NCBI GenBank assembly: GCA_025839675.1
Contig: CP104013.1
Location: 2,700,001 to 2,732,000 of the forward strand
Reading direction: 5' to 3'
Length of the DNA stretch: 32,000 nt
Source of the DNA: Candidatus Lokiarchaeum ossiferum
Lineage (GTDB): Archaea > Asgardarchaeota > Lokiarchaeia > Sigyniarchaeales > Promethearchaeaceae
Position 1 is the stretch's first letter. The number at the start of each line of letters is the position of its first letter. The notes below the pieces were generated by a model. That model made no database searches. It was not told the DNA's origin and was given only the letters and a program-made list of their open reading frames with translations. The position numbers and the translations under genes were made by a program. Positions 12,324 through 20,034 of the stretch are shown piece after piece.

Positions 12324-13244
12324 ATGACAACACCCTATGGACTTAACTTTGATGATTTTGATGATGCCTCCAATGATTGTTGTACTACACCCAATGTGAC
12401 TATAACGGACGATGGATTTCGCGTCTGTCAAAACTGTGGGTTAGTTTTCGGTCAAGAATTTGTATCTTCTGAACGAAGGGCATATACTGCAGATGAAGTG
12501 AAGAATCGACGCCGTACCGAACCTCGTTGGCGAAGTTATGGCCCACGCACGGTGATAGGCATTTCTAAAACTGATTGCAAAGGCGCCACATTAGACAGTA
12601 AACGAGCTCAACTTTTTTCTCGACTATCGAAAATTCAAGGCTCCCTAATCAATAGTATTGAACGAAATTTCTGGGAATCTAAGCCCAAACTAATGAGCCT
12701 TTGTCAAAAATTACAAATACCTCAATTTATCGAGGAAAGTGCATGGAAAATTTATTCTCAAGTCGCTCGACAAAAACTCACCATGGGTCGTTCAATTGAA
12801 TCCTTCGTGACTGCATCATTATACGCAGCCATCCGGATTCACAATTTTCCACGATTATTAGAAGAAATTGTGGAAGTGGCTTTGATCCCCCTCAGATCTG
12901 TCCACCGCAGTTTGGGGTTGATTGTTCGCTTGATTTTGCCACCAATGGGTTTCAAATACAAACCAATTTCACCCAACCCTCTAATTTATCGTTTTGGTGC
13001 AGAATTAGGATTAACCATTACCACCCAAAAGGATGCCTATTCGATTTTACAAACCGCATCAAAACGTGGATTGAAACGTATGGGTAAAGATCCAAAAGGT
13101 ATTGCTGCTGCGGTATTATATCTGGCGGCGAAACAAAATGGAGAGCGAAAAACCCAAACTCAAATTGCAAATATTGCCCGAATTACAGAAGTAACTTTAC
13201 GAACAAGGGCAAAACAAATTCGTGGGCACATATTAGTTCGATAG
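12324..13244 (+). CDS. tfb: transcription initiation factor B (TFIIB homologue), paralogue 1
   Basis: N-terminal zinc-ribbon region CCTTPNVTITDDGFRVCQNCGLV. B-reader/linker SERRAYTADE. Two cyclin-like repeats (GRSIESFVTASLYAAIR; GKDPKGIAAAVLYLAAK; ARITEVTLRTR). Confidence 0.9.
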   Translation: MTTPYGLNFDDFDDASNDCCTTPNVTITDDGFRVCQNCGLVFGQEFVSSERRAYTADEVKNRRRTEPRWRSYGPRTVIGISKTDCKGATLDSKRAQLFSRLSKIQGSLINSIERNFWESKPKLMSLCQKLQIPQFIEESAWKIYSQVARQKLTMGRSIESFVTASLYAAIRIHNFPRLLEEIVEVALIPLRSVHRSLGLIVRLILPPMGFKYKPISPNPLIYRFGAELGLTITTQKDAYSILQTASKRGLKRMGKDPKGIAAAVLYLAAKQNGERKTQTQIANIARITEVTLRTRAKQIRGHILVR

Positions 13245-13625: not shown

Positions 13626-14534
13626 TTATAGATAAGATTTAATTTGTTTTACCCGAGTTCGCAAAGTAACTTCAGTGATTCGCGCCACATCGGCGATTTG
13701 GGCTTGTGTACGTTTTTCGTTTGAATTCTTACATGCCATGTATAATGCAGCAGCAGCTAATCCCTTAGGATCCTTACCCATTGATTTTAAACCTGCTTTT
13801 CGACTTTTGTCCAACATACCTGCTGCTTCCGTTTGAGTAGACATCGAAAGTTTTAGCTCATTACCAAATCGATATACCAGTGATTTTGTTGTGACAGGTT
13901 TGTATTTCATTTTCAAAATTGGGAATACATTCCTAACAATTAATCCTAAAGATCGATGGACACTTCGTAATGGAATGATAGCCACTTCAACGATTTCTTC
14001 TAATAATCGTGGAAATTCATGAATTCGAATGGCAGCATACATGGAGGCAGTCACAAAACCATCAATGGAGCGACCCATGGTAAGTTTTTGTCGGGCAACT
14101 TCAGTATAGATTTTCCAGGCAGTTTCTTGGATTTGAGCGGGGATATTTAGTTTCAAACTTAAGGCATTTAATTTTGGCTTAGCTTCCCAGAAGTTCCGTT
14201 CCAGACTCGAAACGAGAGATCCTTGAATTTTACTAAGACGACTAAACAAAGCTTGTTTTTTAGCTCCAAGTTGATGGCCTCGAGCATCAGCTTGAACACC
14301 AGTAATTACTGTACGTGGTCCGAAAGAGCGCCATTTTGGTTCAGTACGGCGACGAGATTGTACTTCTTCGGAGGTATAAGCCCGACGTTCAGAATCAACA
14401 AATGCTTGTCCAAAAGTTAAACCACAATTTTGGCAGACCCGAGTACCATCATCATTAACAATGACATCAGGGCTTGGACAACAAGGTTCATCATCGTCGT
14501 CTTGATCTTTAAACATATTTCTTCGATAGGACAT
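13626..14534 (-). CDS. tfb: transcription initiation factor B (TFIIB homologue), paralogue 2
   Basis: Same architecture as paralogue 1 (PCCPSPDVIVNDDGTRVCQNCGLT; SERRAYTSEE; GRSIDGFVTASMYAAIR; ARITEVTLRTR). Roughly two-thirds identical to paralogue 1 by eye. Confidence 0.9.
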   Translation of the reverse strand: MSYRRNMFKDQDDDDEPCCPSPDVIVNDDGTRVCQNCGLTFGQAFVDSERRAYTSEEVQSRRRTEPKWRSFGPRTVITGVQADARGHQLGAKKQALFSRLSKIQGSLVSSLERNFWEAKPKLNALSLKLNIPAQIQETAWKIYTEVARQKLTMGRSIDGFVTASMYAAIRIHEFPRLLEEIVEVAIIPLRSVHRSLGLIVRNVFPILKMKYKPVTTKSLVYRFGNELKLSMSTQTEAAGMLDKSRKAGLKSMGKDPKGLAAAALYMACKNSNEKRTQAQIADVARITEVTLRTRVKQIKSYL

Positions 14535-15362
14535 AGATTTTCAACACTTATAAGGATTAATAATGAAAGGACAATTATCATGAGATTAAAACGTAATTTT
14601 TAGTAGTTCACCACGAAATTTTCCAGCACATTAATAAATCCATATTCAACTTTTAAATGTTATTTTTAGACATTTTGCAAATTTACAGAATACATTCATG
14701 GTTCACTTTCAAAAAAGTTCAGAATGAACAAATGTTTTTCTAACAAGATAAAGCGTTTTAATCCCCATAGGATTGTTTTCGTTTGAGAATTGATTTAGAC
14801 TCAATGAAAGAATGTGCAACAAAAAGACCTAAGTATATTAAAATTTATACATTTGAAAATTTACATTTTCATAATATTTATATTTCCGAACGTTATATGA
14901 AATACTATAGTGAAATTATTTTTTTTTCTCATAAAAAAATAAAATTTCATGTCTATTGGTGAAACTCAATGTATTATTACTTTGATGAACAGATTAAGTT
15001 AAATGGGAGATTTGTGCATTTTAAAGACACTAAAATTAAAGAAAAACCAAAATTGGCATCCCAGACATATAAAAATGATGTAAATTTTCAGTTCTTGAAA
15101 GTGAAATCAAGTTAAAAAAAACCTAGGTTTCATTATATTTAAATTTTAATTTCCTTAAACAAAAAATCACAGATTAAAAACCCTTAACATCCGCATTTTT
15201 ACCTTTCATAAGATTTTTAAGCATAATTGTATCCAATCTTATTCTTTCTTTCATTTTGAAAATAATGTCTTATTTTACTTATTTTTATTCAAAAATGAAT
15301 ATATTCAGAAAATAGTTTTCATTTTACTAAACACGATTTTTATTGAATTAACTTATTTTCAA

Positions 15363-15375
15363 TTTTGGGCCAAAA
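15363..15375. promoter_or_regulatory. palindrome TTTTGG-g-CCAAAA (TTGG-N-CCAA family)
   Basis: Perfect 6+1+6 palindrome about 300 nt upstream of the SBP-1 start. Same core as 15431-15439 and 17733-17741. Confidence 0.25.
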
Positions 15376-15430
15376 ATAATATTTTGACAAATATTGAAAA
15401 TCAATTTTCCAAAATAATGAATCTGATAAA

Positions 15431-15439
15431 TTGGACCAA
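15431..15439. promoter_or_regulatory. palindrome TTGG-a-CCAA inside a block conserved between the two SBP upstream regions
   Basis: ATAAATTGGACCAACT here versus CATAATTGGGCCAACT at 17728-17743. The surrounding sequence has diverged. Confidence 0.3.
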
Positions 15440-15560
15440 CTTTGAAGTGATTTGGAAAAAAATATCAATCTTCATTATAATTTCAAGCCCTCAACATCAA
15501 TCAATAATTTTCATTATTCAATTACTTTGGCAGACCACATAAATGAAACATAGTTTATAG

Positions 15561-15580
15561 GCGAGGATTTAAATAATAAA
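15561..15580 (+). promoter_or_regulatory. BRE/TATA-like promoter block of SBP-1
   Basis: GCGAGGATTTAAATAATAAA aligns without gaps with GCAAGGATTTATATAGTAAT upstream of SBP-2. The conserved block continues (TTCTATG..TGTTCTTA). Confidence 0.4.
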
Positions 15581-15664
15581 GCTTCTATGATTACAATGTT
15601 CTTAGAAAAAAATTGTTAAAAAAAATGCCTTTTTTTAATAATGAATAAGAACAAAGTGATTGAA

Positions 15665-17413
15665 ATGAAACACACCAAAATGTATGTCGTAATGGCAGCT
15701 CTTCTTTTTAGCACCATGATCCCCTCAATGGTCATGGCAGAAGAAGAAGCAGCCGAACGACCATTTATATATGGGGTGGGTTCCCTAGTAGTGGATTTAG
15801 ATCCACAAACCGCTTGGGACAGTGCCTCCGGAGATATGATTTCTCAAATTAGTGAAGGTCTTCTCTCTTACGATTTAACCGATCCTAATTTGGCCCTCCA
15901 ACCACAGCTTGCCAAAGATTTTGGAAATTGGTCTGAAGATGCAACAGAATACACCATTGAACTCAAACAAGGAGTAAAATTCCATGATGGGGAAGAAATG
16001 ACTGCTGATGATGTTGTATTTACCTTCGATCGATTGAACTATTTCTGTTCTAATGAAACTCCAACCCAAATTGCAGAATTATACGAACCACTAGCTTCTA
16101 TATATCCTGATACACCTCTTTTAATCAACAAAACCGAAGCTATCAACGATTATACTGTGAAATTCACACTTAACTATCCATATGTTGCTTTTGAACCTTT
16201 GTTATGTTTCTATGGATCAGTTATTTTGTCTGAAAAAAGTACACCAGCTAGAGAGTATTTAATTACTGCCACAGACACTTTAATTGGAACGGGCCCATAC
16301 TATCAAGAATCAAATAGTGATCGATTAACCGTCTACAAATATTTTGAAGATTATTATGGGGAACACATTCCTGAGATTAAAGAAATGCACTGGGTGTTAT
16401 ATGACGATGCTACCACTCAAAACCAAGCATTTTTATCCGGTGATGTTGATGCTGTTGATGGAATTAGTTTAGAATTTATGTCAGAATATGAAGGTAGTGA
16501 GTACCACACAGTTGGAGATCGATTGCAATCGACAGTTATTGTTTATTTAGGTATGGATAACACTGTAATCAAGCTTAATACTCGACTTGCTATTCAGGAT
16601 GCTATTAACTACACCTATATTATTGATGAAATTGGAAAGGGTGAACTAGCTCAAATGACTTCTATCGTTCCAAAAGGTATTATGTATCATGATACAAGCA
16701 TTGAAGCGCCCGTTCAAAATCTTACCGCCGCTCGGTTACATATATTAGATGCAATCGCCGCTGGAGAATTAACTGCACCAGCCGGATTTGATTTGGATGA
16801 AACTAGTCCCGATGAAGAATGGGCCGCTGTTGCAATCGAGAGTTATTCCTATACTTACAACACTGGAAACGCTAATCGAGAAGCAGTTGGCGAATTATGC
16901 AAAGCGAACTTAGATAAAATCGGAATCGATGTAGCAGTCAATGGAAAAACGTGGGGAGAATTCCTCAACGATTTAGATGAAGGAAATGTAGAAATTTATA
17001 TGCTTGGATGGGGACCAGACTATAACGATCCTAGCAATTTTATCAACCCCTTGATGTCTAATACATCTTCAGCGAACGCAGCTCACGTTAATGACTCCCA
17101 ATTACAAACTATGATGTCTGATGGTTTAACTGAAACAAATATGACTAAACGTGAAGAGCTCTATCATGAAATTCAGCAATATATTGCATATGATATTGTC
17201 CCATGGGCTTATTTGTATACTGGAAACGCTCGATCAGTTCGTTATAATGGTGCTGAAAATACTTGTCGTAATGCGATGGGAATTCCATATTTCTACCTAT
17301 GGACCTTTGATTACTCTTCAATTCCAAAAGGTATTCCAGGATTTAACATTCTTGCCCTATTTGGTGTTGCAGCAATTACTTTTTCAGCGTTAATTTATAA
17401 AAAACGCCACTAA
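15665..17413 (+). CDS. ABC-type solute-binding protein, family 5 (peptide/nickel/oligosaccharide class), secreted, PGF-CTERM-like anchor; paralogue 1
   Basis: Family-5 signature AKDFGNWSEDATEYTIELKQGVKFHDGEEMTADDVVFTFDRL. Signal peptide MKHTKMYVVMAALLFSTMIPSMVMA. C-terminus GIPGFNILALFGVAAITFSALIYKKRH. The track ORF begins at 15641. I prefer the ATG at 15665 because it is preceded by GTGAT (SD-like) and is the start conserved in paralogue 2. Confidence 0.85.
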   Translation: MKHTKMYVVMAALLFSTMIPSMVMAEEEAAERPFIYGVGSLVVDLDPQTAWDSASGDMISQISEGLLSYDLTDPNLALQPQLAKDFGNWSEDATEYTIELKQGVKFHDGEEMTADDVVFTFDRLNYFCSNETPTQIAELYEPLASIYPDTPLLINKTEAINDYTVKFTLNYPYVAFEPLLCFYGSVILSEKSTPAREYLITATDTLIGTGPYYQESNSDRLTVYKYFEDYYGEHIPEIKEMHWVLYDDATTQNQAFLSGDVDAVDGISLEFMSEYEGSEYHTVGDRLQSTVIVYLGMDNTVIKLNTRLAIQDAINYTYIIDEIGKGELAQMTSIVPKGIMYHDTSIEAPVQNLTAARLHILDAIAAGELTAPAGFDLDETSPDEEWAAVAIESYSYTYNTGNANREAVGELCKANLDKIGIDVAVNGKTWGEFLNDLDEGNVEIYMLGWGPDYNDPSNFINPLMSNTSSANAAHVNDSQLQTMMSDGLTETNMTKREELYHEIQQYIAYDIVPWAYLYTGNARSVRYNGAENTCRNAMGIPYFYLWTFDYSSIPKGIPGFNILALFGVAAITFSALIYKKRH

Positions 17414-17439: not shown

Positions 17440-17448
17440 TTTTTTTTT
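17440..17448 (+). terminator. oligo-T tract (T9) after SBP-1
   Basis: T9 run 27 nt after the stop codon. Archaeal terminators are oligo-T tracts. Confidence 0.35.
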
Positions 17449-17494
17449 CCAATCATACTCATAAAACATGAAATATAACCAAAATTATATTGAT

Positions 17495-17572
17495 TTAATC
17501 ACACAATCGATCCTCTAGATCGGATCACCACACCGTTTGATAGCAAACAACTCCCATCTAGAGGATCACCAC
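17495..17572 (+). repeat. conserved-box / variable-stem hairpin element, copy A (78 nt)
   Basis: TTAATCACAC-aatc-[GATCCTCTAGAT]-cgg-ATCACCAC-acc-(GTTTG-atag-CAAAC)-aactccc-[ATCTAGAGGATC]-ACCAC. 12/12 bp basal stem and a 5-bp apical stem. About half G+C by hand count, in very AT-rich flanks. Confidence 0.7.
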
Positions 17573-17732
17573 TGGTAAATCAATGCAAAATTATTGCAGT
17601 AATGGGAATTTTGTTTAGTGAATTTTTTTCATTTGAATGTAATTATGAAAAATGACGAAAAAATCATAATTCACTTTTTTTATCTATATTATTAAGTTAT
17701 TTTAAATTATTTCAGATTTTTAATATTCATAA

Positions 17733-17741
17733 TTGGGCCAA
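17733..17741. promoter_or_regulatory. palindrome TTGG-g-CCAA upstream of SBP-2
   Basis: Counterpart of 15431-15439 in the paralogous upstream region. Confidence 0.3.
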
Positions 17742-17910
17742 CTAAGTCTTTCCATTTTTCATATATTTTGAAATACCTTGAATAGAATAACCATCTAATC
17801 AATTTGGTAAATATTCTATTCTTAAAATTAATAATATTCGGCCTTTTCTCGGTTTTATTTTTGCCGAATTTTAATTTGGATAAACTAGATTGATGAACAA
17901 GGGTCAAAAA

Positions 17911-17930
17911 GCAAGGATTTATATAGTAAT
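17911..17930 (+). promoter_or_regulatory. BRE/TATA-like promoter block of SBP-2
   Basis: GCAAGGATTTATATAGTAAT, the paralogous counterpart of 15561-15580. It lies about 75 nt upstream of the ATG at 18000. Confidence 0.4.
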
Positions 17931-17999
17931 TTTTCTATGTTTATCTTGTTCTTAAATCTCACCATTTCTAAAAATCGAAATTAAGAACATGTGATTGAA

Positions 18000-19748
18000 A
18001 TGAAACACACGAAAATGTATGTCGTAATGGCTGCCCTTCTCTTTAGCACTATGATCCCAGCAATGGTCATGGCTGAAGAAGAAGTAGCTGAACGACCGTT
18101 TATATATGGCGTTAGTTCTTTGGTGGTAAATTTAGATCCACAAAATGCTTGGGACAGCGCTTCAGGAGATATGATCACGCAAATCAGCGAAGGTCTTTTT
18201 TCCTATGACTTAACCGATCCTAACCTAGCGATCCAACCACAACTTGCCAAAGACTTTGGAAATTGGTCTGAAGATGCAACAGAATACACAGTTGAACTCA
18301 AACAGGGAGTAAAATTCCACGATGGAGAGGATTTCACAGCAGATGATGTTGTATTTTCTTTTGAACGCTTAGAATTCTTTTGCGTGAATGAAACACAAAC
18401 CCAAATTGCAGAATTATATGAACCATTAGCTTCCTTATATCCAAATACACCTCTTTTAATCAACAAAACCGAAGCTATTGATGATTATACAGTCAAATTC
18501 ACCTTAAACTACCCATATGTAGCATTTGAACCTTTGTTATGTTTCTATGGATCAGTTATTTTGTCTGAAAAAAGCACACCCGCTGAAGAATATTTAGTTA
18601 CTGCCACAGACACTTTAATTGGAACGGGACCATATTATCAAGAATCAAACAACGACCGATTGACTGTCTACAAATATTTTGAGGATTATTACGGCGAACA
18701 CATTCCTGAAATTAAAGAAATGCACTGGGTACTATATGATGATGCCACCACCTTAAATCAAGCATTTTTATCTGGAGATGTGGATGCTGTTGGTGCAATC
18801 TCCCTAGAATTTATGAGTGAATATGCAGGGAGTGAATTCCATGAAGTTGGCGACCGCTTACAAGGAACAGTAATCATCTATTTAGGGATGGATAATGATG
18901 TAATTGGTGTTAACACACGTTTTGCAATACGAGACGCCATTAACTATACTTACATTATTGAAGAATTAGGAAAGGGTGAATTAGCCCAAATGACTTCCAT
19001 TGTCCCAAAAGGTATCATGTATCATGATGAAAGCATTAAAGCACCTGTTCAAAACATAACATCTGCCCGATTGCATATTTTAGATGCAATTGCTGCTGGA
19101 GAATTAACAGCCCCATCAGGCTTTGATTTAGACGAGACTAGCGCCGATGAAGAATGGGAAGCTGCCGAAATTGCCAGCTATTCATATACCTATAATGCAG
19201 GAAATGCGATGCGAGAAGGAGTTGGAGAACTATGCAAAGCAAACTTGGCCAAAATTGGTATTTCCGTCGCGGTCACTGGAAAAACATGGGGTGAATTCTT
19301 AAACGATTTAAACAATGCAGAAGTTGAAATCTACATGCTTGGATGGGGTCCGGATTATAATGATCCAAGTAATTTTATCAACCCTCTCATGTCAAATACC
19401 TCTTCAGCTAACGCAGCTCATGTAAACGACAGCAAATTGCAAAAAATGATGTCTGATGGTTTAACTGAAACAAATATGACTGCCCGTGAAGAAATTTACA
19501 AGGAAATGCAAAATTATATCAATGACGAAATTGTTCCATGGGCCTACTTGTACGTCTCAAATAGTCGATCAGTAAGATACATTGGTGTCGAAAACACTTG
19601 TCGTAATGCAATGGGAATTCCATATTTCTACTTATGGACGTTTGATTACACAAAAATACCAAAAGGGATCCCTGGTTTCAATATATTAGCAATCTTCGGA
19701 ATTGCAGCTATTTCCTTTTCAGGATTGATGTATAAAAAACGAAACTAA
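18000..19748 (+). CDS. ABC-type solute-binding protein, family 5, secreted, PGF-CTERM-like anchor; paralogue 2
   Basis: Collinear with paralogue 1 over the full length, roughly 85-90 percent identical by eye. Same signal peptide, and C-terminus GIPGFNILAIFGIAAISFSGLMYKKRN. The track ORF starts at a GTG at 17991, which I read as the SD-like GTGAT. Confidence 0.85.
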   Translation: MKHTKMYVVMAALLFSTMIPAMVMAEEEVAERPFIYGVSSLVVNLDPQNAWDSASGDMITQISEGLFSYDLTDPNLAIQPQLAKDFGNWSEDATEYTVELKQGVKFHDGEDFTADDVVFSFERLEFFCVNETQTQIAELYEPLASLYPNTPLLINKTEAIDDYTVKFTLNYPYVAFEPLLCFYGSVILSEKSTPAEEYLVTATDTLIGTGPYYQESNNDRLTVYKYFEDYYGEHIPEIKEMHWVLYDDATTLNQAFLSGDVDAVGAISLEFMSEYAGSEFHEVGDRLQGTVIIYLGMDNDVIGVNTRFAIRDAINYTYIIEELGKGELAQMTSIVPKGIMYHDESIKAPVQNITSARLHILDAIAAGELTAPSGFDLDETSADEEWEAAEIASYSYTYNAGNAMREGVGELCKANLAKIGISVAVTGKTWGEFLNDLNNAEVEIYMLGWGPDYNDPSNFINPLMSNTSSANAAHVNDSKLQKMMSDGLTETNMTAREEIYKEMQNYINDEIVPWAYLYVSNSRSVRYIGVENTCRNAMGIPYFYLWTFDYTKIPKGIPGFNILAIFGIAAISFSGLMYKKRN

Positions 19749-19760
19749 GGTATTATTAGA

Positions 19761-19776
19761 TTTTTTTTTTTTTTTT
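19761..19776 (+). terminator. oligo-T tract (T16) after SBP-2
   Basis: Uninterrupted T16 beginning 13 nt after the stop codon. Confidence 0.5.
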
Positions 19777-19813
19777 GAATATACCCTATCACACTGCTCA
19801 AATCACTTTGTTT

Positions 19814-19884
19814 TTAATCACACTCGATCTTCAGGACAGGTCACCACTTTGCTTTGGAAAGCATTCCTGTCCTGAGGGTCCCAT
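19814..19884 (+). repeat. conserved-box / variable-stem hairpin element, copy B (71 nt)
   Basis: TTAATCACAC-tc-[GATCT TCAGGACAGG]-TCACCAC-tt-(TGCTT-tgga-AAGCA)-tt-[CCTGTCCTGA GGGTC]-CCAT. 15-bp basal stem, two of whose pairs are T-G (G-U only on the + strand). 5-bp apical stem. Confidence 0.7.
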
Positions 19885-19975
19885 TTTAAAATAATTAGCT
19901 TATATCCAAAGGAATTTTGATGTCTGCAATAGATTCAAGCAATATTAAGAAGGAAAAAAAAAAAATGATTGAAAT

Positions 19976-20034
19976 TTAATCACACAATAGATCAATAGAA
20001 AAAAGTCACCACACTCTTTTCTAAGGGTCACCAC
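19976..20034 (+). repeat. conserved-box / variable-stem hairpin element, copy C (59 nt, short form)
   Basis: TTAATCACAC-aata-[GATC-aa-TAGAAAAAAG]-TCACCAC-a-[CTCTTTTCTA-ag-GGTC]-ACCAC. 9/10 upper-stem pairs plus a GATC/GGTC base. The loop is just TCACCACA. Confidence 0.65.

Follow-up and report, generated by a model that had tools for sequence, protein, structure and literature searches.

Three covarying hairpin elements beside solute-binding protein genes of Candidatus Lokiarchaeum ossiferum: a probable undescribed small structured RNA

What is preserved when an intergenic hairpin keeps its base pairs while the letters that form them change, and what might such a structure do? The question is raised by a locus of Candidatus Lokiarchaeum ossiferum, one of the few cultured Asgard representatives, in which three related hairpin elements of 60-80 bases each (copies A, B and C) lie on the + strand within one 2.6-kb stretch, next to two tandem genes for solute-binding proteins (SBP1 and SBP2). 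The window that we analysed is the whole 32,000-nt stretch around them (contig CP104013.1, positions 2,700,001 to 2,732,000 of the forward strand). A previous, sequence-only reading had described the three copies as invariant boxes around a two-tier hairpin with covarying stems, and had left their function open between a small RNA, a read-through 3' element and a site recognised as single-stranded DNA or by a protein. As far as could be found, the literature contains no characterised regulatory small RNA from any Asgard archaeon, and a candidate that is backed by covariation, is short, has clear boxes and lies adjacent to obvious candidate targets is directly testable in this organism. In this paper, we report that the elements are probably an undescribed small structured RNA, and the choice of functions is narrowed modestly, towards an RNA with anti-Shine-Dalgarno-like single-stranded motifs.

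Conserved boxes and covarying stems

Common to all copies are an 11-nt 5' box (TTTAATCACAC), at first measured as 10 nt, a GATC/GRTC stem base and a TCACCAC that opens the loop, and these shared boxes are invariant across the copies, as the sequence-only reading had held; an ACCAC tail follows the stem in copies A and C and is degenerate in copy B (Table 1). The placing of the three copies on the + strand was confirmed as well, since the composite pattern TTAATCACAC-N0-8-GATC-N6-20-TCACCAC occurs three times in the window and not once in 100 shuffles, and each copy folds as had been described. TCACCAC alone occurs seven times in the window against 1.9 expected, five of the seven being inside the elements, and in the minimum-free-energy (MFE) folds the related motifs of the 5' tail, the loop and the 3' tail are all unpaired. 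The helices are longer than the 8-12 bp that had been assigned to the upper stems: they have 15 layers in A (with one C x C mismatch), 15 in B, all of them paired, and 16 in C, of which 13 are paired. Counted from the stem base, 12 pairs in A and 15 in B are uninterrupted, and the only internal loop of C is a symmetric 2x2 one. No clean intergenic hairpin in 76 kb of the genome is longer than those of A and B; both lie 65-82 nt behind SBP stop codons on the same strand as the SBP genes, and the gap between B and C is 91 nt. The earlier statement that all elements lie behind SBP genes and oligo-T tracts holds for A (SBP1 and a T9 tract) and B (SBP2 and a T16 tract), whereas C comes after B and an A12 tract. 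With G+C contents of 0.44, 0.47 and 0.35 for A, B and C, against about 0.30 in the surrounding kilobase, the elements are indeed GC-enriched relative to their spacer. In copy A only, an upstream ATTGATTTA (17489-17497) pairs perfectly with a downstream TAAATCAAT (17576-17584) to give an outer 9-bp helix, which would bury the first bases of the 5' box; its counterpart in C is a 5-bp GATTG/CAATC, and B has none.

Table 1. Positions of the three elements, their parts and the associated features in the window
Feature	Position	Strand	Remarks
Copy A, whole	17494..17572	+	MFE -24 kcal/mol, z -7.6; 84.7 bits with covariance model R1
Copy A, 5' box TTTAATCACAC	17494-17504	+	followed by linker AATC
Copy A, 5' arm GATCCTCTAGATCGG	17509-17523	+	
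Copy A, loop motif A-TCACCAC	17524-17531	+	
Copy A, apical mini-hairpin GTTTG-ATAG-CAAAC	17535-17548	+	
Copy A, 3' arm CCCATCTAGAGGATC	17553-17567	+	
Copy A, tail ACCAC	17568-17572	+	
Copy B, whole	19813..19884	+	MFE -29.1 kcal/mol, z -5.6
Copy B, 5' box	19813-19823	+	followed by linker TC
Copy B, 5' arm GATCTTCAGGACAGG	19826-19840	+	
Copy B, TCACCAC	19841-19847	+	
Copy B, mini-hairpin TGCTT-TGGA-AAGCA	19850-19863	+	
Copy B, 3' arm CCTGTCCTGAGGGTC	19866-19880	+	
Copy B, degenerate tail CCAT	19881-19884	+	ACCAG in strain 2
Copy C, whole	19975..20034	+	without apical mini-hairpin; MFE -11.4 kcal/mol, z -4.7
Copy C, 5' box	19975-19985	+	followed by linker AATA
Copy C, GATC	19990-19993	+	followed by 2x2 internal loop AA/AG
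Copy C, upper stem TAGAAAAAAG with CTCTTTTCTA	19996-20005 with 20014-20023	+	
Copy C, loop TCACCAC-A	20006-20013	+	
Copy C, GGTC	20026-20029	+	stem base, 3' side
Copy C, tail ACCAC	20030-20034	+	
SBP1	15641..17413	+	family-5 solute-binding protein, Loki-CTERM; likely start ATG 15665
SBP2 (NEF87_002287)	17991..19748	+	start ATG 18000
SBP1 ribosome-binding region GTGATTGAA	15656..15664	+	abuts ATG 15665; complementary to 5' box
SBP2 ribosome-binding region TGTGATTGAA	17990..17999	+	abuts ATG 18000; complementary to 5' box
T9 tract	17440..17448	+	between SBP1 stop codon and copy A; likely archaeal U-tract terminator
T16 tract	19761..19776	+	between SBP2 stop codon and copy B
5' flank of copy B and start of box	19801..19820	+	18/20 complementary to SBP1 15642-15661; E 0.005
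5' flank of copy C	19945..19975	+	direct near-copy of SBP1 5' leader 15635-15666

The upper stems had been called unrelated in sequence. The arms of A and B, however, align without gaps over all 15 layers and are identical at 10 of 15 positions in each arm, with the differences at the same layers; the two stems are homologous and diverged, not unrelated. Three layers are compensatory between A and B (U-A to A-U, A-U to G-C and U-A to C-G), two have one-sided changes that each give a G.U pair, and where A has the C x C mismatch, B has an A-U pair. The 5-bp mini-hairpins at the apex of A and B differ at four of their five pairs and are still fully paired. In a hand-made structural alignment of the five distinct sequences, 94.8% of the cells assigned to pairs are paired, compared with 38-47% once the 3' partners have been shifted by 1-3 columns; 10 of the 21 pairs are changed on both sides, and the covariation score of 0.524 (0.213 in shuffles) was reached by 0 of 500 shuffles. 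In a simulation that placed the observed number of substitutions randomly on copy A, the probability that a fully paired 15-layer main stem results by chance was P = 2.4e-5, and that for the mini-hairpin 0.009. The covariation of the stems thus stands on stronger evidence than had been claimed for it.

SBP1 and SBP2 are tandem paralogues with 86% amino acid identity, and the duplication is old, because identity is down to 60% at their third-codon positions. Neutral sequence of that age is accordingly about 40% diverged (third-codon positions, SBP1 versus SBP2); purifying selection therefore acts on the box, on the GATC/GRTC base, on TCACCAC and on the ACCA tail, and in the stem it is pairing, not sequence, that is selected. 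We are confident that the elements are a selected nucleic-acid structure.

A second strain (CP163304.1, locus L036) keeps all three copies in the same order, content and positions, but at 95-98% identity it is too close to inform much. Its differences in A (three) and in B fall in loops or in the 3' tail and leave the stems unchanged: the apical loop of A reads ACAA instead of ATAG and one internal-loop base is changed, the 3' box of B is GGGTC-CCAT in the window and GGGTCACCAG in strain 2, and copy C is 100% identical. The spacer between B and C (19885-19975) is the most diverged segment between the strains, with 84.6% identity against 95-99% elsewhere.

Occurrence and relation to described families

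A covariance model (R1) was built from the structural alignment and scores the known copies at 49-85 bits. Besides the window, we scanned five further SBP loci of strain 2 (L037-L041) and three related Lokiarchaeal contigs (L042-L044, 48 kb); the DNA of the species, including the window, amounted to 143 kb, and Lokiarchaeal DNA in all to 213 kb. Neither motif clustering nor R1 found a further copy in these 213 kb, the next best R1 match after the known copies having 15 bits and lying inside an open reading frame (ORF) of L037. Such a search had been proposed with the sequence-only reading, which had counted an absence of further copies as one half of what would speak against it, the other half being an absence of + strand transcripts. 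Nine other SBP paralogues of the same genome are without such an element, and there is none upstream of SBP1. Exact-pattern scans of public collections gave 11 matches in genome contigs, 24 in metagenome contigs and 0 in viral contigs, all of them unrelated, mostly on bacterial contigs and none with the hairpin of the element; these collections did not return the window's own copies, so the source genome is apparently absent or masked in them, and the negative says little on that genome. Viral contigs scanned for the 3' arm of copy B gave no match, and neither arm has a second match within the window that would mark it as an antisense copy of another gene. As far as searched, within some 2% of the genome, the family occurs at this locus only, and its reach is small, with three copies at one locus of one species so far.

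This distribution also bears on a small mobile or transposon-derived repeat, for instance a miniature inverted-repeat transposable element (MITE) or an IS200/IS605-type palindromic end, which would likewise show several copies in one orientation with conserved ends around a hairpin. Only three copies exist, however, all in one 2.6-kb stretch, with none in the five other loci of the species or in the 48 kb of relatives; there is no transposase among the window ORFs scanned, nor are there target duplications or terminal inverted repeats, the positions are identical in both strains, and the interiors are as diverged as the old gene duplication. A mobile origin is thus highly improbable.

Two other hairpins of the species may be mentioned here. 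One, at L038:15986-16060 (CP163304.1), 140 nt beyond the final gene in a cluster of five SBP genes, is a possible degenerate relative with TTTAATTACACAC, TTTCACACAC and a 7-bp hairpin, AGAAGGA-aCATCACACAC-TCCTTCT, with CATCACACAC in its loop; it was not counted as a further copy, with a non-significant fold (z of only -1.2) and a match of R1 to its 5' box only. Apart from SBP1 and SBP2, the SBP gene before it is the sole paralogue that has GTGAT as its ribosome-binding site. The other, at L037:12465-12497, is a perfect 9-bp hairpin (CTCTTCTCA/TGAGAAGAG) with CAACTTACAC before it and CAACC after it, behind another SBP pair and 83 nt upstream of a ribosomal-protein gene; it resembles the elements in layout only and has no R1 match.

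The earlier view that no described family matches was borne out. Rfam 15, a search that takes in the histone 3' stem-loop, C/D and H/ACA small RNAs (sRNAs) and small ribozymes, gave 0 matches in the window at the gathering score and, at E <= 10, only one unrelated 15.8-bit match inside the SBP2 ORF, and ARAGORN found no tRNA or tmRNA in the window; the likeness of a helix with ACCA to a tRNA minihelix is only a lead. An intrinsic-terminator scan calls none of the three elements: the stems of A and C are followed by ACCAC, and the CCAT of B by T4 only, which is under the run of five that the scan uses. Among the known classes considered, C/D box, H/ACA, K-turn and bulge-helix-bulge (BHB) intron were rejected, their defining boxes not being seen on reading and Rfam being silent, and so was an origin ORB element, whose boxes were not seen on reading either. 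A histone-type stem-loop with an ACCCA tail was also set aside (the stems here have 15 bp, not 6 bp, and there is no Rfam match), as was a promoter in which the box is a TATA element and TCACCAC lies at the transcription start (spacing 27-31 nt), which would leave the 5' arm untranscribed and the covariation unexplained. The elements are, as far as can be told, undescribed, and they are supported by covariation.

Strand and nature of the folded molecule

Covariation by itself cannot tell RNA from single-stranded DNA, and the strand has to be read from other signs. G-U pairs had been taken as the mark of the + strand; this stands for copy B, which has two U.G pairs on the + strand that are A.C on the minus strand, but not for copy C, where an A x C mismatch on the + strand would be G.U on the minus strand. 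The fold z-scores are better on the + strand for all three copies. Mainly because of the U.G pairs of copy B and these z-scores, we regard it as likely that the + strand is the folded strand, and as reasonably probable that the elements are + strand RNA. A transcript read from the minus strand, as an antisense RNA to the SBP 3' regions or as an RNA in its own right, would carry the motifs as GUGGUGAYC, which is strongly Shine-Dalgarno-like. It would turn the mismatch of C into a pair, A and C fold at a slightly lower raw energy on that strand (-29 and -14.2 kcal/mol), a T12 tract follows C (plus-strand A12, 19954-19965), and in A, GGTGATCC stands 5 nt upstream of an ATG that opens a 10-codon frame. 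On the other hand, B loses two pairs and its z falls to -2.1, and the z-scores are weaker for all three copies, so that we consider a minus-strand RNA improbable. The micro-ORF behind GGTGATCC was rejected: it is lost in strain 2 (ATG to ATA) and the other copies do not share it, C having no equivalent.

Integrons and integrase-less clusters (CALINs) are reported to be enriched in Asgard archaea (PMC9668308), and a layout of gene-site-gene-site-site with a variable stem between conserved ends would suit folded single-stranded DNA recombination sites of the attC type in such a cluster. Integron attC sites are 57-141 nt long, lie behind genes in one orientation, have conserved ends, a variable complementary stem and a variable terminal structure, and are strand-specific (PMC9668308). 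Here, too, each site lies behind a gene in the same orientation, B and C are close enough to resemble an empty cassette, stem and apical structure vary between conserved flanks, and G.T pairs would be tolerated in DNA hairpins as well. However, the locus has no RYYYAAC/GTTRRRY boxes, the stem base being GATC/GRTC in all copies without AAC/GTT there on either strand; A and B are without extrahelical bases or an unpaired central spacer; and none of the 28 window ORFs of at least 80 amino acids that were scanned against Pfam is an integrase, transposase or reverse transcriptase or matches PF00589 (tyrosine recombinase), so that no tyrosine recombinase was found in the 32 kb. Furthermore, the genes are unlike cassettes in being long (1.75 kb), with their own conserved promoter-like region and a long 5' spacer, and stable in content and order between the strains, and SBP1 has no site upstream. 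We consider attC-like sites very unlikely, and new non-canonical recombination sites with GATC/GRTC-ACCAC ends and no known recombinase even more so; were the latter true, the elements would have driven tandem amplification and partial deletion of SBP units, and copy C, fused to a geneless SBP leader, would be the scar of one event.

A possible anti-Shine-Dalgarno role and its counterparts

For the + strand RNA, we propose the following role. The three elements would be paralogous copies of one small structured RNA, transcribed by read-through or from promoters of their own downstream of the SBP terminators, in which the 15-16-layer helix closed by GAUC/GRUC would serve as a scaffold and as a block to 3' exonucleases. 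The helix would keep three motif copies single-stranded. The one in the 5' tail is AAUCACAC; the other two, RUCACCAC with the fuller form (G/A)(A/G)UCACCAC, stand at the loop's 5' side and make up the 3' tail. AUCACC is the core of the archaeal 16S rRNA 3' end (GGAUCACCUCC), and we take the 16S rRNA of L. ossiferum to end in GGAUCACC. As the motif contains AUCAC(C), as expected at the 16S 3' end, it is complementary to Shine-Dalgarno sites of the GGUGA/GUGAU type. The element RNAs might therefore pair with the ribosome-binding regions of the SBP1 and SBP2 mRNAs (UGUGAUUGAA-AUG) and tune their translation or stability.

Several observations are in line with this proposal. In the loci analysed, GGTGA/GTGAT is found 3-20 nt upstream of 12 of 113 start codons, including those of ribosomal-protein genes and both SBP genes. 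The 5' box (positions 1-10) forms 10 bp, including one G.U, with UGUGAUUGAA of SBP2 at -10.3 kcal/mol, and pairs with the ribosome-binding site of SBP1 at -9.8 kcal/mol; ranked as box targets among 287k non-self positions, the SBP2 site is 4th and the SBP1 site about 12th. In addition, the flank of copy B together with the start of its box (Table 1) gives a duplex of -21.7 kcal/mol with the SBP1 leader. The flank of copy C resembles the same leader in the sense orientation, with a local alignment score of 42 (shuffles 25 +/- 4, maximum 37) and 81% identity over 32 nt in blastn (E 0.005), and the alignment puts the box TTTAATCACAC at the place of ATGAAACACAC, the first SBP codons. It could be the scar of a third SBP unit whose ORF was lost by recombination between the two similar sequences, or it could reflect selection for a leader mimic instead. 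A relic SBP promoter in the B-C spacer was rejected; the spacer is collinear by eye with promoter and leader, and blastn is significant only for the last 31 nt.

A number of points weigh against pairing with the SBP leaders. Transcription, strand and target are inferred, and the independent element sequences are only three, with no further copy in the Lokiarchaeal DNA scanned and with minus-strand folds of A and C that are slightly lower in raw energy. The complementarity between box and ribosome-binding sites, which was tested post hoc, extends over only 8-10 bp and is equalled in score by about a dozen unrelated sites in the 143 kb; for the loop and tail motifs, pairing with the SBP sites is limited to about 5 nt. 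The sense-orientation likeness of the C flank is explained no less well by a history of duplication or by a mimic than by antisense pairing, and the simple antisense argument is weakened further because the SBP start region is partly palindromic (GTGATT...AAACAC), the box being both similar and complementary to parts of it. Neither a promoter nor a terminator could be assigned to the elements with confidence, and the T9 and T16 tracts upstream speak against simple read-through; with these tracts between the SBP stop codons and A and B, the elements would need their own promoters or leaky termination. Public RNA-seq data of L. ossiferum B35 are available, for which the RNA was prepared with a kit that retains small RNAs (PRJNA1054498, PMC11216029). 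Taking both sides together, we put the probability at roughly 0.3 that the elements are sibling small or 3'-region RNAs that pair with SBP ribosome-binding sites through anti-Shine-Dalgarno-like RUCAC(C)AC motifs. That they make up the first translational riboregulator family of Asgard archaea, acting as 16S 3'-end decoys, is a tentative idea of somewhat lower standing.

The position of A and B invites a simpler account, in which the hairpins are passive 3' stabilisers or processing signals of the SBP mRNAs, read-through transcripts being trimmed back to a hairpin that protects the highly expressed SBP message, with the boxes as processing or protein-contact sites. The elements are on the SBP strand at a short distance behind the stop codons, and their hairpins are very stable, the strongest perfect intergenic ones in the 76 kb. 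Repetitive extragenic palindromic (REP) elements are such stable hairpins directly behind a highly expressed binding-protein gene, e.g. malE-malF in E. coli; they are dispersed, with hundreds of near-identical copies and no invariant single-stranded boxes, whereas the Lokiarchaeum elements are few, local, diverged and behind oligo-T tracts. U-tract termination is documented in archaea (PMC8716108), and on that basis most SBP transcripts should end at the intervening T9 and T16 before they reach a hairpin. Moreover, no gene stands in front of copy C, the three invariant single-stranded motifs and the 11-nt 5' box are left unexplained, and the nine SBP paralogues named above do without an element. 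We regard a purely stabilising role as unlikely.

The same motifs might instead attract a protein. KH-domain proteins bind UCAC-type tetranucleotides, and archaeal Dim2 binds the 16S 3' end; a protein-binding RNA whose RUCACCAC motifs imitate the single-stranded 3' tail of 16S rRNA (GGAUCACC...) could titrate or recruit, for example, the KH factor Dim2/Pno1 or a processing nuclease. In favour of this, the motif is unpaired as well as invariant, and GGATCACC occurs twice in copy A, each time adjoining a helix. However, the neighbourhood has no candidate gene for such a protein, GGUC stands in B and C in place of GAUC, and the likeness to 16S, in the sequence expected for archaea, ends after ACC (CAC against UCC). 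We consider such a decoy rather improbable.

The genes of the locus provide the setting for the proposed RNA-RNA pairing. SBP1 and SBP2 encode products of 582-590 amino acids, family-5 (Opp/Dpp/Nik-type) solute-binding proteins with a Loki-CTERM sorting domain, and the best database match of SBP2 is NEF87_002287 of Candidatus Lokiarchaeum ossiferum (100% identity). The C-terminal Loki-CTERM domain (NF033507) lies at 17330-17413 in SBP1 and 19665-19748 in SBP2, with scores of 25.9 bits and 17.8 bits, the latter under the 19.9-bit cut-off. As neither gene adjoins permease or ATPase genes, both can be regarded as orphan surface-anchored binding proteins. A conserved promoter-like block precedes both genes (15522-15604 and 17871-17954, blastn E 1e-8), reading AGGATTTAAATAA (and AGGATTTATATAG), then TTCTATG...TGTTCTTA; at this block, about 140 nt ahead of the SBP start codons, the duplicated unit has its left edge. 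The window genes around the SBP locus are ordinary housekeeping genes, namely two TFB paralogues, a four-gene pyruvate:ferredoxin oxidoreductase cluster, an AAA ATPase, eRF1 and NDK. The two TFB (TFIIB) genes, full-length and convergent (12324-13244 on the + strand and 13626-14534 on the minus strand), are directly upstream of the SBP locus, and a 1.1-kb non-coding stretch (14535-15640) separates the second of them from SBP1. Within this stretch, at 14606-14614 (+), lies a fourth + strand GTTCACCAC, one mismatch off the GRTCACCAC motif and without an accompanying hairpin, about 75 nt upstream of the opposite-strand TFB gene and about 20 nt from a promoter-like GGATTTATTAAT; on the minus strand it reads GUGGUGAAC, with which the loop motifs pair at about -13 kcal/mol.

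If the elements are unexpressed, they would still be a clean example of a conserved DNA or RNA structure without a known reader. If, on the other hand, the anti-Shine-Dalgarno role holds, it would bear on the regulation of the greatly expanded family of surface-anchored SBPs in Lokiarchaea, and known systems offer two comparisons. Two sRNAs of Methanosarcina mazei, sRNA154 and sRNA41, repress translation by masking ribosome-binding sites (PMC5867862); they resemble the proposed RNAs in being archaeal small RNAs with anti-ribosome-binding-site sequences, and differ in belonging to another phylum, in having no sequence or structural similarity to the elements and in not forming a covarying multi-copy family beside the target genes. 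The closer parallel is bacterial. LhrC1-5 of Listeria monocytogenes, with which RsaE and the GcvB-type regulators of opp/dpp genes are grouped as close systems, are sRNAs that exist in several copies and use three redundant UCCC motifs to block the ribosome-binding site of oppA, which encodes an oligopeptide transporter's substrate-binding protein (PMC8079631). LhrC differs from the Lokiarchaeum elements in the absence of sequence similarity, in its motif (UCCC against UCAC(C)AC), in ending in an intrinsic terminator and in that its transcription and targets are proven. The likeness lies in clustered homologous copies that each form a hairpin RNA, in short pyrimidine-rich motifs, three per RNA and redundant, that lie in a loop, in a single-stranded stretch and in a 3' hairpin and pair with Shine-Dalgarno regions, and in the target, whose protein class is the one encoded next to the Lokiarchaeum elements. 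Sibling sRNAs with redundant motifs against the ribosome-binding sites of peptide-binding proteins would then have arisen independently in Archaea and Bacteria.

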